Assembly (NCBI RefSeq): GCF_000016745.1
Contig: NC_009483.1
Span: 4,800,001-4,832,000, forward strand
Direction: 5' to 3'
DNA length: 32,000 nucleotides
From: Geotalea uraniireducens Rf4
GTDB taxonomy: Bacteria; Desulfobacterota; Desulfuromonadia; Geobacterales; Geobacteraceae
Below, one piece after another: positions 5,091 to 18,615 of the stretch (within the stretch, counting starts at the first letter, position 1; every line of letters starts with the position of its first letter). Made by a program: the position numbers and the translations under genes. The notes under the pieces are model-generated. The model was given only the letters and a program-made list of their open reading frames with translations, made no database searches and was not told the origin of the DNA.

Positions 5091-5111
5091 TTAATACTAC
5101 TCCGACACATA
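5091..5111. repeat. IS left terminal inverted repeat TTAATACTACTCCGACACATA
   Basis: Exact reverse complement of 6595-6615. Confidence 0.9.
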
Positions 5112-5148
5112 GCTTGATATAATCTGTTTCATGTGATAATCTCTGCGA

Positions 5149-6435
5149 ATGACAACAGAGATCGTTTTCCCCGGCATCGAAGAATATATGGCTCCCTATT
5201 ATGGCTATTTCCATCGGTCAGAGAGCCGTGAACTGGCAGAATGTTACTTGGCCGGCCTGCTCATGGACGGTGAGCGCAAGTCAGTTGAACCCATGTCAGA
5301 GAAGGTAAACGCATCTGAACGAAGTATGCAGCGCCTCCTTTCGACTGCCAAATGGGACGATCAACTTGTTGCTGAGCAATTCCGCCGTTCCATGCTTGAC
5401 GTCACTTCCGACCCGCAGGGGATCCTGGTTCTTGATGATACCGGGTTCCCTAAGAAAGGGTACGACAGTGTATGTGTTGCCCGGCAATACTGCGGTGCAT
5501 CAGGCAAGACTGACAACTGTCAGATTGGCGTAAGCATGACGTATGTCGGCAGAGATGTCGCCTGGCCATATGCCATGGAACTGTTCGTCCCGGAATCCTG
5601 GGATCAGCAAAATGATGATTGCACCGCAAAGCGTAAAAAGGCTCACATGCCGGAGTCAGTGCACCATAAGTCAAAATGGCGCATGGCACTTGATTTTGTT
5701 GACCTGGCCCGAAAAGACAATGTTCCCCATCGTGCAGTCCTTGCTGACAGCTGGTATGGCAACATTCCGGAGTTTCGCAAGGAGCTTGAGTCCCGCAGTG
5801 AAAATTACATCCTGGGAGCTTACTCCAACACCCCGGTATTTCTTGAGGAGCCGGTCTTTGAAATTGCGCCAGTCAAAGAGCATAAGCGAGGGCGTCCACG
5901 AACTCGCCCTAAGGTAGTCTCCACAAACCCCGAACCGGTCAAGCTGTCGGTACTGGGCGAAAGCATTGCCGATGATGCATGGCAACGGCTAGAATTGAGG
6001 CTCAATTCCAAGGACAAGCCACTTGTTGCAGAGGCCGTCTCAATGAGAGTGTGGCCGGCTCACGGATGGCGGCAGGGCAATCATCATGAACAAGTCTGGC
6101 TCCTGATAGAGCGCCGCCCCCTGAACCTGGGTGGATACGAGCTTCGCTATTTCTTCAGCAATATGCCGCAGCATCTGGCAACGATTGACCTTGCCCGCCT
6201 CTACCATGAACGTTATTGGATAGAGCATGGCTATCAACAGCTAAAGGAAGAGCTTGGCCTTGATCACCATGAAGGGCGCTCATGGAGCGGATGGCATCGA
6301 CATGTGCTCCTGACGTCCCTGGCATATGGCTATCTGACACTGTTGCGTTTGCAGCAAAAAAAACAGAAGAGTGCGACAGCGCGGAGCAACTGGATTCAGA
6401 AAAAATCGACACTGGCCAACGACGCTTTGTTCTGA
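5149..6435 (+). CDS. IS701-family DDE transposase
   Basis: An N-terminus (YFHRSESRELAECYLAGLLMDGERKSVEPMSE) typical of the family. Catalytic-type motifs LVLDDTGFPKKG, LADSWYG and WIEHGYQQLKEELGLDHHEGRSWSGWHRH. Confidence 0.9.
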   Translation: MTTEIVFPGIEEYMAPYYGYFHRSESRELAECYLAGLLMDGERKSVEPMSEKVNASERSMQRLLSTAKWDDQLVAEQFRRSMLDVTSDPQGILVLDDTGFPKKGYDSVCVARQYCGASGKTDNCQIGVSMTYVGRDVAWPYAMELFVPESWDQQNDDCTAKRKKAHMPESVHHKSKWRMALDFVDLARKDNVPHRAVLADSWYGNIPEFRKELESRSENYILGAYSNTPVFLEEPVFEIAPVKEHKRGRPRTRPKVVSTNPEPVKLSVLGESIADDAWQRLELRLNSKDKPLVAEAVSMRVWPAHGWRQGNHHEQVWLLIERRPLNLGGYELRYFFSNMPQHLATIDLARLYHERYWIEHGYQQLKEELGLDHHEGRSWSGWHRHVLLTSLAYGYLTLLRLQQKKQKSATARSNWIQKKSTLANDALF

Positions 6436-6594
6436 AAACCAAACACCTGGAAAAGTGGCGCCATCGTTGCTGTTCTCTTCGTTCCTCTGAGCGATGGAGG
6501 CGGAGGCAACGACTCAAAGGCATGCCGTCCTTGCCTGACATCAGGCATCAGATTGCAAAGCTTCTGGTGCGAATATTGAAATGTTAAAGAACTA

Positions 6595-6615
6595 TATGTG
6601 TCGGAGTAGTATTAA
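6595..6615. repeat. IS right terminal inverted repeat TATGTGTCGGAGTAGTATTAA
   Basis: Exact reverse complement of 5091-5111. Confidence 0.9.
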
Positions 6616-6664: not shown

Positions 6665-6823
6665 AATAACGAGTTGGTCGCAGACAGGGAGGGCTGGAAC
6701 CGTGTTAGACGATCGCATCCTGAACGTGGAGACCAAGAAGGAACTCGCAGCCGACGAGGCTTCCGCGTGCCTGAAGCGCCTCGGTCTCTTACCGATGAAG
6801 CCATCCTACGATCTGGATGGGAA

Positions 6824-6873
6824 TACCTTAAGGGGTCAATACCTTAAGGGGTCAAAATACCTTAAGGGGTCAA
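6824..6873 (+). repeat. Three exact direct copies of TACCTTAAGGGGTCAA (16-mer)
   Basis: Copies at 6824-6839, 6840-6855 and 6858-6873, so the periods are 16 and 18 bp. Each contains the self-complementary CCTTAAGG. Confidence 0.9.
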
Positions 6874-10631: not shown

Positions 10632-10653
10632 GTCCAAAAACGGCAGTTAACCA
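10632..10653 (+). repeat. Heptamer-array element copy A, left part (box GTCCAAAAACGGCAGTTAACCA), cut by the intron
   Basis: Matches 16150-16171 and 15573-15591. It continues at 12727. Confidence 0.75.
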
Positions 10654-10770
10654 GTAGAGTAGGAAGCAGGTTACTACATCATTAGGTTTGGCTTGTCCGT
10701 TTCCGCCCCTTTCGTTTGGCGGTGCCTAAGTAGCCTTACCATAGTTGCCTTAACCAGCTCCCCCTCGTCA

Positions 10771-10802
10771 AACCGTACGTGCGGATTTCCCGCATACGGC
10801 TT
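10771..10802 (-). ncRNA. Group II intron domain V
   Basis: The minus strand reads AAGCCGUAUGCGGGAAAUCCGCACGUACGGUU, the conserved DV hairpin with the AGC catalytic triad context and a GAAA-type loop. Confidence 0.85.
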
Positions 10803-10853
10803 ACCTATCAGCCTCTTGCTGCACGGCATTATTGAGGAGTTGTGGCTTTGCTG

Positions 10854-12158
10854 TTACAGGTAAACCAGACCATATCGCTTAAGTCCGGCATACAGGCTTT
10901 CACCTGCCCTGAAGGGTTTGCTCCGCCTTTGGCTCCGATTGTTCAGAAATATTCGAAAGCGAGTCCTCGTGTAATGATTCACGTCTCGAAATACTTTCCG
11001 GGGATACCCGTAGTCGAAGTAGTTGCCCCATCCGCGAAGGATGCTGTTTACCTCGGCAATTGCTTCGACAAGCGGCTTTTTGTATCCGCTTCGGGTCTTC
11101 TCCCGGATTTTTCCCTTGAGTGCTCCTATGGCCTTCTTACTCGGCATGATGTTGAGATAATCCCAATCTCTGCCCCGCAGGTCACGGTCATAGCGGAGGG
11201 TGAATCCCAGAAAGTTCAGGCTCTCTTTCTTGTTCATTCTGACAATACCGGTTTTGTCACGGTTGATGCTGAGTCCAAGGTCTGTTTCGAGTTTCTCTTC
11301 CAGCCATCCGGTTATGCGATTGCCCATGTGTCTGGCCATTACTACGAAGTCGTCGGCAAACCGTACCATGCGCGCTCTGGCGAAGTGGTAGGGGCTGTCT
11401 GCTTCTTCGTGAAAGGCCCGGTCGAGCCGGTGAAGGTAGATGTTGGCAAGAAGGGGAGATATTACCCCGCCTTGTGGCGTCCCTTGTTTGGGACGGCTGA
11501 TGCTGCCGTCTTCTTCTACTACCGGACTGTGAAGCCATTGCCGGATCAGTTTGAGGACACTCCGGTCGGCTATGCGCCGCTCAAGTTCTACTATCAGGTG
11601 CTCGTGGGGGATGCTGTCAAAGTAGCTCGAAAGATCCGCGTCATACACTTCCTGCCGTCCGAGTTGGAGGTTATTACCGACTTGGTCGAGGGCTCCATGG
11701 GGACGCCTTTTGGGACGAAATCCATGGGAGCAGTCGAGAAAGTCCACCTCAAATATCGGTTCGAGGATAAGGAGTACGGCTGCCTGTACAATTCTGTCCC
11801 GCACGCACGGTATGCCGAGCGGGCGCAGTTTGCCGTTGGGCTTGGTGATGTAGACGCGACGCACCGGGGATGGTTTGTAGTTTTTGGTTCTCAGGCTTTC
11901 TTGAATTTCGTCAAGATAGCCGGATATTCCGTCTGCCCGCACCTCGATGGATTCAATGCTGACACCATCGACTCCCGGCGCGCCCTTGTTCGCCTTTACT
12001 CGCAACCACGCCGTTTCAAGTACATCACGACGATGGATTCGGTCGTAAAGGGCATAGAACCGGAACTGCGGTTCTCGTTTGGCCTTGCTGCTCAGTTTCC
12101 ACCGCAGAAGGGAGACTTTTACCGGCAGTCCGGGTTCAGGTTCGAATCCTTCGGCCAT
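10854..12158 (-). CDS. Group II intron reverse transcriptase/maturase (no endonuclease domain)
   Basis: [63 protein letters not shown] (a YADD variant) and the X-domain ILRGWGNYF. It ends about 60 aa after domain X with no HNH motif. MAEGFEP (12158) is preferred as the start over the 12437 ORF start. Confidence 0.9.
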
Positions 12159-12726
12159 CCATTCCGTTATGGAGCGTCTGTCGCTCAAGCGGGTCTCCTC
12201 TCTTTCCGTGTAAACATGACTGAAGTACGGCCCCTTGGCTCCACGGGCATTACCCCGCTTCCCGGCTACTATGGGCCGCTCCGAATTCCGACCGTACACG
12301 CTTGGCGGGTTATTGATTCCCCGTCGGCGTTCTCCCTTCGGCGAAACCCTTTCGCTTTGGGAATTACGTCGGACCTCCCAGGTTCCTCGGCTGATCTTTC
12401 GACACGCGCCCTCCCCAATCACCCCGGACAGTCCCACCGGTTCTTTCGCTCGTTTATCACCGGTGGATGGCAGGCTTCACCACATTCGGAAGGTTGGCCA
12501 CTGTCAACTACGTGTAACGAGGCCGAAACGGGTTCGCTTGCGCTGGGCTCGCGTCTTCGTCGTCAGGGTAGTTATCGTACCCTTCGCTCTTTTCTTACAA
12601 AGAACCGGTCTTACTCCCCACGTTTGGTTACCCTCTCGTGACAGACCGCGACTACATGGTGAACGAGCAATTTACATGTCTGACACTTTTCAGTCAGATA
12701 GATCAGCCAGGCTTGGCCTGGCGTAC

Positions 12727-12847
12727 CGAATGACACGAATAAACACTAATGTTTTTAACCCCTTGGTAAATCTTGAGTAGTCACCGATCTGGTGAGTGCC
12801 TTCTGCATCACATGAGCTTGTATATTCGTGGCTAGATGCTTTTTATA
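12727..12847 (+). repeat. Heptamer-array element copy A, right part
   Basis: CGAATGACACGAATAAACACTAATGTTTTTAACCCCTTGGTAAATCTTGAGTAGTCACCGATCTGGTGAGTGCCTTCTGCATCACATGAGCTTGTATATTCGTGGCTAGATGCTTTTTATA aligns with 16172-16313. The right arm keeps only one ATTCGTG. Confidence 0.8.
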
Positions 12848-12894
12848 GGATAATACTTGACGGGCAAAAGCCCGTTGTTTGAGGAGAGAAGGAC

Positions 12895-15311: not shown

Positions 15312-15572
15312 ATGAAGCACTTGTGCGGCACTACGGGGATGCTCCTGCTCTTGTTTGGATCGGACCTGCCGCTCTCGGAGCGGGGGATGGTGTTGGCGGC
15401 GCTATTCCTTGGCATCTGTCTCTGCCTGGCTGCTCTGGCGCTCATGGCGCATCCGCTGCTGGAATGGATTGTCATTGAATGGGATACCGCCTATTATGTG
15501 AAGCAGCACGAGATGCGCGAGATAAATAATCAGCATCTGCAGATAACCCTTGATAAGGAAAAGGACGATTAA
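15312..15572 (+). CDS. Hypothetical small membrane protein (86 aa)
   Basis: GGAGGTAGG RBS and two hydrophobic helices. The TAA stop is immediately followed by repeat box ACCCAAAACGGCAGTT. Confidence 0.45.
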   Translation: MKHLCGTTGMLLLLFGSDLPLSERGMVLAALFLGICLCLAALALMAHPLLEWIVIEWDTAYYVKQHEMREINNQHLQITLDKEKDD

Positions 15573-15721
15573 ACCCAAAACGGCAGTTGGACACGGATTA
15601 ACACGGATCTGGACGGATTTTCACTGATAAACCAAGGACAACCCTTTGGATCTTGGTTCTTGGTCTTCTAAATCCGTGAAAATCCGTACAAATCAGATTT
15701 GATCCGTGTGCAAATGCGTTT
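15573..15721 (+). repeat. Heptamer-array element copy B (CACGGAT/ATCCGTG variant)
   Basis: Box ACCCAAAACGGCAGTT. Heptamers at 15592, 15602 and 15612, with inverted heptamers at 15672, 15682, 15692 and 15702. Ends in AAATGCGTTT. Confidence 0.75.
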
Positions 15722-15843
15722 AGACGGACGGAGTTGTTCCGTCATCACGTGCGGGCTGCCCTTCCCAATTTTTGATTGACTGGGAGCCCATTGATCAGGT
15801 ATATCCTTCGTACTTTTCGCGCCGACAAGGTTGAACAATCCCC

Positions 15844-16149
15844 ATGGACCCCTATTTCCCCTACATCTTTATCAGCAACGTCTTTCTCACCCTCGCCGAT
15901 GCAACCATCGGCTACCACGCAGCGCCGTCATTGATCCGCCTGGGAACAACCGACGAGGAGTCGGCCGTCCGGACGCTCAGCGGGGTGCGCACGCTCCTGG
16001 CAGGGGTCGTGGCGATCTACATGTTCTGCAACTGCCTCGCCTTCTTCAACAAGCAGCCGTTCTTTCTCCTTGTCGTCACCGGCATCATCGTCCTCGACAT
16101 CGTTGCCCAGCTCGTGGTAAGCGGCAAGATGAGAAACCGGAAAGAATAA
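15844..16149 (+). CDS. Hypothetical membrane protein (101 aa, about 3 TM)
   Basis: Three hydrophobic segments but a weak RBS. The TAA stop is immediately followed by box ACCCAAAAACGGCAGTT. Competing ORFs in other frames look non-coding. Confidence 0.45.
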   Translation: MDPYFPYIFISNVFLTLADATIGYHAAPSLIRLGTTDEESAVRTLSGVRTLLAGVVAIYMFCNCLAFFNKQPFFLLVVTGIIVLDIVAQLVVSGKMRNRKE

Positions 16150-16313
16150 ACCCAAAAACGGCAGTTAGCCACGAATGACACGAATAAACACGAATGTTTT
16201 TACCCCCTTGTTAAGTCTTGAGTAGTCAACGATCTGGTGAGTGCCTTCTGCATCACAAGAGTTTGTATATTCGTGAAAATTCGTAAAAATTCGTGGTTAA
16301 AATGCTTTTTAAA
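16150..16313 (+). repeat. Heptamer-array element copy C (CACGAAT/ATTCGTG variant), uninterrupted
   Basis: CACGAAT at 16170, 16179 and 16189. ATTCGTG/ATTCGTA at 16269, 16279 and 16289. The core is nearly identical to copy A. Confidence 0.8.
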
Positions 16314-16342
16314 GGTTAAATACACCAAACCGAAAGAGCAAA

Positions 16343-18043: not shown

Positions 18044-18481
18044 TTACACGCCGATATCTTCATTCCACAGTTCCGGTCCGGTCTCGATGAAATCGGTCAT
18101 CATGCTGATGCACTCCTGCTCCTGCAGCACATCCACCGTCACTCCCCGCGATTTGAGGAGCTCTTCCTCGCCGAGAAACGTCCGGTTTTCGCCGACGATC
18201 ACCCTCGGTATCCCGTACAAAAGGATCGCCCCGCTGCACATGGCACAAGGGGAGAGAGTCGTGTAGAGGGTGCATTCCCGGTAAACCGCTGCCGTCTGCC
18301 GGCCGGCGTTTTCCAGCGCGTCCATCTCCCCGTGGAGAATGGCGCTTCCTTTCTGCACCCGGCGGTTGTGCCCGCGGCCGATGATCCGGCCATTGTGGAC
18401 GATCACCGAGCCGATGGGAATTCCCCCCTCCGCCTGACCCTGTTTCGCCTCTGCCAGCGCTGCCTGCATGAATGTGTCCAT
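18044..18481 (-). CDS. Cytosine/nucleoside deaminase of the CMP/dCMP-deaminase zinc-binding fold (yeast Fcy1-like)
   Basis: HGEMDALE and TLYTTLSPCAMCSGAILLYGIPRVIVGEN...LWNEDIGV closely resemble Fcy1-type cytosine deaminase. ATG at 18481 with a GGAGGAG RBS. The 18482-18604 extension only translates the repeat element. Confidence 0.85.
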   Translation of the reverse strand: MDTFMQAALAEAKQGQAEGGIPIGSVIVHNGRIIGRGHNRRVQKGSAILHGEMDALENAGRQTAAVYRECTLYTTLSPCAMCSGAILLYGIPRVIVGENRTFLGEEELLKSRGVTVDVLQEQECISMMTDFIETGPELWNEDIGV

Positions 18482-18514
18482 TATCCGCTCCTCCAACTCA
18501 TATGTGACTTTCGC

Positions 18515-18615
18515 TTCCCCCCTCACCCTAGCCCTCTCCCGCAAGGGGCGAGGGAACTTTAACTGCTCCCCTCCCTTGATGGGAGGGGTTAGGGGAGGGT
18601 GCAATGTGCTGGTTT
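18515..18615. repeat. GC-rich palindromic intergenic element, copy 2 (short variant)
   Basis: Same ends and core as 112-249; lies between two minus-strand genes. Confidence 0.8.

Follow-up and report, generated by a model that had tools for sequence, protein, structure and literature searches.

Three intergenic elements of Geotalea uraniireducens Rf4 are very probably copies of a non-coding miniature transposon with an IS1380-type partner

Three related intergenic elements, A, B and C, were investigated in a stretch of 32,000 nucleotides of Geotalea uraniireducens Rf4 (NC_009483.1, positions 4,800,001 to 4,832,000), which is called the window in the following. These elements are very probably copies of a non-coding transposable element of the miniature inverted-repeat type (MITE), about 165 bp long and moved by a transposase of the IS1380 type. 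An earlier note on this DNA had described a MITE-like repeat family with a terminal box, arrays of inverted heptamers in both arms, a common end motif and a copy A that is split by an intron. When the window was read again, boxes, heptamer positions, end motifs and the split of A were all found as described. The family proved to be real and MITE-like, as target-site duplications, an empty site in relatives and autonomous insertion sequences (IS) with the same ends were identified.

The left end of the MITE reads CCT(A)AAAACGGCAGTT and the right end AAATGCTTTTTnTAGG. Both form terminal inverted repeats, in which CCTAAAAA-CG-GCA pairs with TGC-TTTTT-n-TAGG (helix 1, 93% paired). In the aligned flanks T-N-A-W-CCT-A… was conserved on the left and …T-A-G-G-W-T-N-A on the right, and the target consensus from these flanks is W-T-N-A-W. 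Outside of CCT/AGG a direct repeat of 5 bp was perfect in 28 of 40 scorable genome copies, compared with a mean of 2.4 and a maximum of 8 after shuffling of the partners; only a duplication length of 5 bp fits the genome copies. Comparable results were obtained for metagenome copies, with perfect 5-bp duplications in 25 of 42 (shuffled 2.0, maximum 8), including the full-length IS L160 and L226. In the window, the box CAAAAACGGCAGTT was matched three times (10635, 15575 and 16153), and 0.13 matches are expected by chance. The elements are about 150-170 bp long and non-coding; the listed open reading frames (ORFs) which overlap them are alternative frames and were not taken as genes.

For element C the insertion could be followed to the base. 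The ORF of 101 amino acids (aa) between B and C has 13 homologues with 53-96% identity and is judged from sequence to be a real gene. Its surroundings are kept in the loci L127, L128 and L131, contigs coding for its nearest homologues, with the gene order O-methyltransferase, 85-88-aa ORF, 101-aa ORF and DHH-CBS phosphatase, intergenic spacers of 106 nt and 23 nt, and no element. All three loci show the empty C site with the junction GAATAAATACACC (the relatives read GGAAAGAATAAATACACC), and the window reads GGAAAGA[ATAAA]-element C-[TTAAA]TACACC. C is regarded as a precise insertion into an ATAAA that already held the TAA of the 101-aa ORF, because the relatives carry the uninterrupted site and the window has the element between two copies of the pentamer. 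B is also absent from L127, L128 and L131, with blurred junctions: the tail of the preceding ORF differs, the right end is decayed and an extra hairpin follows.

The features of the three elements are given below. The motifs lie where the earlier note had placed them; only the limits of the elements had to be corrected, as the true ends are situated a few bases further out.

16151..16315, plus strand: element C, complete MITE copy of 165 bp (CCCAAAAACGGCAGTT ... AAATGCTTTTTAAAGG), absent from the orthologous loci L127, L128 and L131
16146..16150, plus strand: left copy of the target duplication of C, ATAAA, holding the TAA (16147-16149) of the 101-aa ORF; from the empty-site alignment
16316..16320, plus strand: right copy of the target duplication of C, TTAAA, 4/5 identical to the left copy
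16170..16195, plus strand: left array of C, three CACGAAT units at 16170, 16179 and 16189
16269..16295, plus strand: right array of C, ATTCGTG, ATTCGTA and ATTCGTG at 16269, 16279 and 16289
16226..16240, plus strand: central palindrome of C, TCAAC-gatct-GGTGA, a putative relic corresponding to the TCACC(n)GGTGA at the transposase gene start of the autonomous IS; helix 5, 89% paired
15574..15727 (about), plus strand: element B, a divergent and older copy whose right end (…AAATGCGTTTAGACGG) has decayed and whose core differs (hairpin CCAAGG…CTTTGG)
15569..15573, plus strand: target-site-like pentamer TTAAA at the left end of B, holding the TAA (15570-15572) of the 86-aa ORF
15592..15618, plus strand: left array of B, CACGGAT, CACGGAT and GACGGAT at 15592, 15602 and 15612
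15672..15708, plus strand: right array of B, ATCCGTG, ATCCGTA, ATCAGAT and ATCCGTG at 15672, 15682, 15692 and 15702
10633..10653, plus strand: left part of element A (TCCAAAAACGGCAGTTAACCA), cut within heptamer 1
12727..12849, plus strand: right part of element A (CGAATGACACGAAT … AGATGCTTTTTATAGG), 93% identical to C over 104 nt
12781-12785 and 12791-12795: palindrome of A, TCACC and GGTGA
10654..12726, minus strand: group II intron interrupting A and not part of the MITE; Rfam RF00029 at 10654-10804, ORF with RVT_1 and GIIM at 10854-12437

In B and C the CCC end begins 1 nt past the TAA. Exact CACGRAT units were found in B at 15592 and 15602 and on the minus strand at 15672 and 15702, in C at 16170, 16179 and 16189 and on the minus strand at 16269 and 16289, and in A once at 12734 and once at 12824. 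Degenerate units are GACGGAT (15612), ATCCGTA (15682) and ATCAGAT (15692) in B and ATTCGTA (16279) in C. The end motifs AAATGCGTTT (15712-15721, B), AAATGCTTTT (16300-16309, C) and AGATGCTTTT (12834-12843, A) are of the type AAATGC(G/T)TTT. When the halves of A are joined (CGGCAGTTAACCA|CGAATGACACGAAT), they are colinear with C, with no base gained or lost; the exon junction of the intron is TTATTCGTGTCATTCG|TGGTTAACTGCC. The intron itself lies opposite to the flanking genes, starts with GUACG at the 5' end, where GUGYG is usual, and encodes a reverse transcriptase/maturase ORF in which no endonuclease domain was detected.

Two observations concern the surroundings of B. The upstream 86-aa ORF (15312-15572) ends with …LDKEKDD and is terminated by the TAA at the edge of B. 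Its tail reads …LDKDNVEET and …LDKESAADH in relatives (L127 2628-2894, L131 1373-1630), and the C-terminus is variable. Directly after the decayed end of B, at 15722-15760, extra sequence is present that the relatives do not have. It contains the hairpin GACGGA-gttgt-TCCGTC and forward GACGGAC/GACGGAG, resembling the left-arm heptamer of B, and may have remained from another partial copy or from a rearrangement.

Ends starting with CC and duplications of 4-5 bp are the rule in the IS1380 family. From the CCTA…TAGG ends and the 5-bp duplication of the MITE, which agree with this rule (compared with ISEcp1, L122, L123 and L124), a relation to this family was suspected. A metagenome scan with the 16-mer CCTAAAAACGGCAGTT gave 120 loci, and a transposase of the IS1380 type was found in 21 of them. 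Inverted copies of the 16-mer delimit eleven full-length IS of 1.62-1.71 kb (L200, L206, L228, L246 and seven more) and a deleted one of 1.16 kb. Each IS possesses one long ORF with the motif D-x-D-S-T…Q-E-x-A-x-x-G-Y-N-P, and the ORFs reached 74.4 and 53.7 bits against Pfam PF13701 (gathering score 34.7). By their sequences, the partner transposases would form a divergent clade of the IS1380 family. In public protein collections they occur only as unnamed "transposase", e.g. from Spirochaetota and Candidatus Acidoferrum. Protein searches starting from ISEcp1 led almost exclusively to ISEcp1-like proteins, and two MITE copies gave no blastn match in the plasmid collection. Three other IS1380 members (L122-L126) possess CCC/CCT ends and lack both box and palindrome.

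All five left IS ends that were read contain TCACC(C)nnn(G)GGTGA at a distance of 85-100 nt from the terminus, where it encodes, in frame, H-P-x-G-E near the N-terminus of the transposase; in L206 and L193 the ATG is located inside the palindrome. Since the palindrome is shared by MITE and IS and is in frame at the N-terminus, the central palindrome of the MITE would derive from the 5' end of the transposase gene as a relic. The partner transposase, supplied in trans, would bind the conserved terminal box and cut and paste the MITE. Transposition activity in this genome is inferred.

Several results weigh against a MITE that is mobilised by an IS1380-type enzyme. The NCBIfam model NF033539 (IS1380) was matched with E = 3e-40, but the 138 bits stay below the curated cut-off of 180. 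With the ISEcp1 transposase as tblastn query, neither the window nor the 120 genome loci gave a match to such a transposase. On the right, array-bearing MITEs end in AAATGC-TTTTTnTAGG, unlike the IS, which end there in AACTGCCGTTTTTAGG. Finally, the right junction of B and the flanks of A lack a clean duplication (3/5 matching for A), and a base-exact empty site was found only for C.

The position of the elements directly at stop codons, as noticed for B and C, does not support a functional link to the genes: the stop codons coincide with the T-N-A core of the 5-bp target duplication, at left and right ends alike. In thirteen cases an ORF with 60 codons or more terminates exactly at this core (six at left ends, seven at right ends), compared with 0-3 for each of the offsets 1-15. 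TAA and TGA match this core, and the duplication would restore the stop codon with one copy on each side. An insertion exactly on the stop codon would leave the gene intact and would be tolerated. B and C appear to start at a stop codon because TAA and TGA fit the target core and the duplication regenerates the stop. Regarding the neighbouring genes, 18 copies are located between convergent and 4 between divergent pairs; between co-directional genes the element is oriented 12 times in one and 11 times in the other direction. This placement fits a target preference combined with tolerance of the insertion, not a strand-specific function.

The distribution of the family was examined with one genome per species, using the pattern AAAACGGCAGTT-N{110,140}-ARATGCKTTT, which is blind to the heptamers. 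At least 120 loci were obtained. An nhmmer profile built from clear cases divided the 120 listed loci into 74 members (scores of at least 20.9) and 46 chance or coding matches (10.4 at most); an ungapped arm-identity score and a Smith-Waterman arm score did not separate true copies from chance matches. Among the matches listed, the 74 copies come from 39 assemblies: 17 of Geobacterales/Desulfuromonadales, 14 of Nitrospirota including Thermodesulfovibrionia, 5 "Deltaproteobacteria" genome bins, 2 of Gallionellaceae/Nitrosomonadales and 1 other. Many of the 8-kb loci hold at least two copies. The heptamer varies by lineage, with CACGGAT, CGCAGAT, CGCTGAT, CACAGAG, CACAAAA, CGCAAAG, CACGAAA, GCAACNGA and others. 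Head-to-tail or nested copies were seen in L118 (1-313), L025 (14-281) and L009 (7324-7616), e.g. …AAATGCTTTTTCTAGGAT-A-AACCTAAAAACGG… in L118, and a heptamer of L025 (minus strand, about 7909 in reversed coordinates) carries an insert of 22 nt. Contig ends hold many MITE copies, and thus the family probably breaks metagenome assemblies.

In the heptamer arrays, the right unit is the reverse complement of the left one in 44 of 77 elements (permutation mean 12.3, maximum 23); hence the co-variation of left and right arms, first seen in B and C, holds for the whole family. For the pairing test an alignment of 32 sequences with a hand-drawn pairing was used, which comprises the subfamilies whose spacing is mostly 10 nt, B and C included. 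Of the proposed pairs 82% are formed, compared with 36-43% when the partners are slid, and 18 pairs show double changes. The number of double-change cells was 52 versus 29 in shuffles, and none of 500 shuffles reached 52. Thus, the arms are truly complementary and co-varying. Position 4 of the heptamer is unpaired in 24 of 32, 17 of 30 and 19 of 31 cells, and the other six positions are conserved as C-R-C-n-G-A-T. The spacers between the heptamers are not complementary, as the earlier note had stated (48% paired, shuffled mean 57%). These 3-nt spacers pair below chance since an identical A-rich or T-rich spacer stands in the two arms on the same strand; the heptamers alone are inverted (columns 28-31/143-145 and 39-41/133-135).

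Two other statements on the arrays were not supported. A constant helical phasing of 10 bp does not exist throughout the family, as the best period among the 77 elements is 10 in 36-41, 9 in 18-22 and 8 in 13, depending on the subfamily. Nor is there support for the heptamers as subterminal transposase sites, since no array was present at the five IS ends read or at the other full-length IS ends scanned. All copies with at least three units are MITE-sized and never adjoin a transposase gene. Arrays accompany either type of right end (L158 and L212 for one, L201 and L240 for the other), which indicates that they arose or spread within MITE lineages. The two to four heptamers per arm are therefore regarded as an addition peculiar to the MITEs, as no full-length IS that was examined has them. 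The heptamer unit was compared with the inner part of the terminal box (AACGGCAGTT and AACGCAGAT); these motifs are too short, and no claim is made.

For the role of the arrays we lean weakly towards sites at the DNA level, followed by hairpin formation and then by a neutral by-product. As a tentative proposal, less likely than not, the arrays would act on double-stranded DNA as reiterated, inverted sites for protein binding or DNA architecture, which would aid the pairing of the two ends in so short an element, in some subfamilies with an adjacent IHF-like site. Against such protein sites count the absence of the arrays from the autonomous IS, the spacing of 8-10 nt, which is not uniformly helical, and the change of the heptamer from one subfamily to another and also inside a single genome (B has CACGGAT, C has CACGAAT), with the arms staying complementary. 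A complementary change of this kind is the classic signature of base pairing and not of the site of one protein. It leads to a different explanation, according to which the elements are still MITEs but the arms matter as a nucleic-acid hairpin, either as bidirectional terminator or mRNA-stabilising stem in 3' untranslated regions, flanked by A5/U5, or in single-stranded DNA; the arrays would be structural and the co-variation a result of selection for pairing. B (-57.7 kcal/mol, z = -6.0) and C (-49.1 kcal/mol, z = -4.7) do fold far better than shuffled sequences, the formed pairs (82%) and the 52 double-change cells point in the same direction, the stem base GCA/TGC is preceded by A5 and directly followed by T5 on both strands, and the copies are enriched at the 3' ends of genes (18 convergent, 4 divergent). 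On the other hand, arm mismatches of the G:T type and of the A:C type are equally frequent (325 versus 348), which favours neither strand as RNA, and the element occurs in either orientation relative to transcription (12 versus 11). The mostly mismatched position 4 and the spacers pairing below chance are not expected of a simple inverted duplication, and RNAalifold gave no long consensus stem. The scan for intrinsic terminators found none for the whole element and only minor hairpins at chance rate (3 versus 1.7 expected); the stem flanked by A5/T5 is a resemblance. Scans of Rfam 15 with gathering and E-value thresholds yielded only matches to the group II intron, and the elements matched no Rfam family apart from microRNA-precursor hits far below threshold. 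A hairpin function is considered unlikely. The view that a plain or strand-specific RNA stem is disfavoured was strengthened, given the lack of wobble asymmetry, orientation bias and Rfam match. A purely neutral origin is just as doubtful. Here the arrays would be functionless, formed by slippage duplication of 8-10-nt units with arm-to-arm correction and amplified from one master copy. Bursts of near-identical copies per genome (e.g. five in CAMTXX and five in JBCKZY) agree with this, as uniform arrays can be simple descent; so do the variable number of units (2-4) and an autonomous IS that does without arrays. Yet unit, number and spacing match in both arms across many independent subfamilies of several phyla, arrays are present in MITEs with either right end (L158 and L212 versus L201 and L240), and arm-to-arm correction should make the spacers complementary too, which they are not.

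That the arrays are sites of a global regulator or nucleoid protein of the host (IHF/HU), and that the elements are kept for the regulation of flanking genes, is considered very unlikely. Paired opposite-strand arrays were annotated as putative IHF/HU sites in G. metallireducens (PMC2700814), and the published units also occur in the family members L002 and L004. Moreover, 11 of 77 copies match the IHF consensus WATCARNNNNTTR, compared with 1.6 (maximum 7) after shuffling, and the position of the match, next to the inner side of the arrays, is constant; nt 32-44 of the left end of ISEcp1 are a perfect match to the IHF consensus. But this IHF-like site is restricted to a minority of copies and lies beside the arrays, not within them. 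The heptamer is too varied for one host protein, differing from subfamily to subfamily and, within a single genome, from B to C, and the subfamily CACAGAG with period 9 spans Geobacter, Gallionellaceae and "Deltaproteobacteria" genome bins. No common feature links the flanking genes, and close relatives lack B and C at the same locus. Integron attC sites with cassettes of ORF plus element, or REP/REPIN sequences moved by a RAYT, can be dismissed almost with certainty. An imperfect palindrome right after a stop codon, a small ORF bracketed by B and C, and a group II intron in opposite orientation, as known for IIC-attC introns, are reminiscent of attC. The 5-bp target duplication and the IS1380-type partner speak against both, and no integrase or Y1 transposase was detected in the 20 larger ORFs of the window that were scanned. 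The 101-aa ORF is in place in relatives without both elements and hence not cassette-borne, and the elements occur in both orientations, also between convergent genes. By eye, the core pair RYYYAAC/GTTRRRY and GTAG heads were absent; no pattern search was run for these. A composite transposon or cassette with the 101-aa ORF, considered on account of TTAAA at the left of B and the right of C, was rejected, as the relatives keep the ORF without the elements.

Returning to the MITE with arrays active on DNA, a more far-reaching idea can be formulated, which at present seems rather improbable. The arrays could be an evolved device, confined to the MITE, by which a non-coding passenger surpasses its parent IS in capturing a transposase acting in trans or a host protein that bends DNA. 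Their reiterated sites, inverted between the arms, would lie between the transposase box and the relic of the gene start and turn over in concert in both arms, thereby defining the MITE lineages. Or else the host could have co-opted them as orientation-independent terminators or as landing pads for regulators at gene ends.

Further repeats were observed in the window. An IS at 5091-6615 with perfect terminal inverted repeats of 21 nt (TTAATACTACTCCGACACATA) encodes a transposase of 428 aa (5149-6435) of the DDE_5 type (IS701-like), and its flanks show no obvious target duplication. It was considered as partner of the MITE and rejected, since its 21-nt terminal repeat is unrelated. Just downstream, the 18-mer AATACCTTAAGGGGTCAA is present in three perfect tandem copies at 6822-6873, 16 and 18 nt apart. 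An inverted repeat of 22 nt (9417-9438/9564-9585, 95% complementary) with arms 125 nt apart lies between the genes of a Fic-family protein and a methyltransferase. Two copies of a second repeat family are situated at 112-250 and 18421-18615. They are G+C-rich and internally palindromic (TTCCCCCCTCACCCTAGCCCTCTCC … GGAGGGGCTGGGGGAGGGTGCAATGTGCTGGTTT), differ by short indels and resemble the CCYTC-pentamer "class 4" multicopy sequence of G. metallireducens.

In general, a MITE with a DDE transposase as partner is a kind of element that is already known. New is the family, defined by its ends, target, partner clade and spread across phyla, together with the explanation of the association with stop codons and the demonstration that the arrays are absent from the parent IS. 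Palindromes with arrays at gene ends, recurring in Geobacterales, Nitrospirota and other bacteria of groundwater and sediment, can accordingly be read as remains of transposons for which the partner (a divergent IS1380 clade), the target (W-T-N-A-W) and an insertion logic that would preserve stop codons are defined. This offers a concrete alternative to their interpretation as global regulator sites and makes the question testable. For genome annotation it is of use as well, because such elements otherwise invite false calls of small RNAs, terminators or regulators. Co-varying arrays in many MITE lineages and not in the parent IS pose a tractable question, namely how passengers compete for a transposase. 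Co-option by the host, if true, would revive the "global regulator" idea of 2009 on the basis of a mobile element.

Short motifs that are reiterated inside both ends in opposite orientation are known from Ac/Ds (hexamers) and En/Spm (12-mers), and pneumococcal BOX elements contain variable internal modules. The repeats of Ac and En/Spm are part of the autonomous element and are bound by its transposase; in contrast, the autonomous IS described here is devoid of arrays. Correia elements (Neisseria MITEs; listed in PMC3184786) and ERIC/IRU are intergenic imperfect palindromes of 100-160 bp with terminal inverted repeats, often co-transcribed at gene ends. Correia elements contain an IHF site and can terminate or process transcripts. 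They differ by a TA duplication, repeats of 26 bp and no known partner; neither Correia nor ERIC possesses reiterated co-varying heptamer arrays, and both are functional analogues, not relatives. Chunjie of Geobacter uraniireducens is a MITE from the same bacterial group, likewise A/T-rich and with a stable predicted fold. With 178-235 bp, terminal repeats of 21 bp and direct repeats of 9 bp, it represents a separate family, and an identity of A, B and C with Chunjie was rejected on account of these terminal and direct repeats.

ISEcp1 (plasmid pC15-1a) has the ends CCTAGATTCTACGT … ACGTGGAATTTAGG, i.e. CCTAG…TTTAGG compared with CCTA…TAGG of the MITE. It carries TTCACCCATTGGGTGA at nt 75-90 from its left end, and the MITE in L025 has TTCACC at nt 75-80. 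Both systems share an A/T-rich target duplication of 5 bp, reported for ISEcp1 (PMC2887853), and ISEcp1 and the IS1380 family resemble the partner IS in a single DDE transposase of Pfam PF13701. The heptamer arrays of the MITEs are missing in ISEcp1 as in the partner IS. The elements of the window differ in being non-coding 165-bp derivatives, and the partner transposases are only distantly related to that of ISEcp1. In ISEcp1 (L121, 871-886), an element of clinical importance, the palindrome TTCACCCATTGGGTGA is located about 95 nt upstream of the annotated start codon, and the left end (L121, about 830-842) contains the perfect IHF consensus AATCAAAGCCTTG. ISEcp1-like transposases with 83-90% identity are common in environmental metagenomes, e.g. 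in genome bins of ANME-2 and Labilibaculum.

The closest precedent was found in G. metallireducens, for which Aklujkar et al. (2009; PMC2700814) described "predicted global regulator binding sites" of classes 1-3, pairs on opposite strands with 3-5 tandem units. The opinion that the repeat belongs to no named family thus has to be revised, because paired arrays with matching units had been annotated there as putative sites of IHF or a global regulator. The units are GTTGCTYN (four times), TCTCCGTS[Y] (three times) and MTYCTGA (five times); most pairs are situated 3' of genes, and ISGme8 (IS110 family) or ISGme9 (IS481 family) interrupts many of them (PMC2700814). They were read as regulator sites, and, in contrast to the family described here, the paper reports for them neither terminal repeats nor target duplications nor a transposase partner (PMC2700814). 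Published units were recovered in the family members L002 (GTTGCTCA, three times) and L004 (TCTCCGTGT). Hence the sites of G. metallireducens are very probably the same kind of element, an identity based on the consensus strings only. The interruption of pairs by IS110 and IS481 elements there corresponds to the interruption of A by a group II intron here, and other mobile elements may insert into this MITE by preference.

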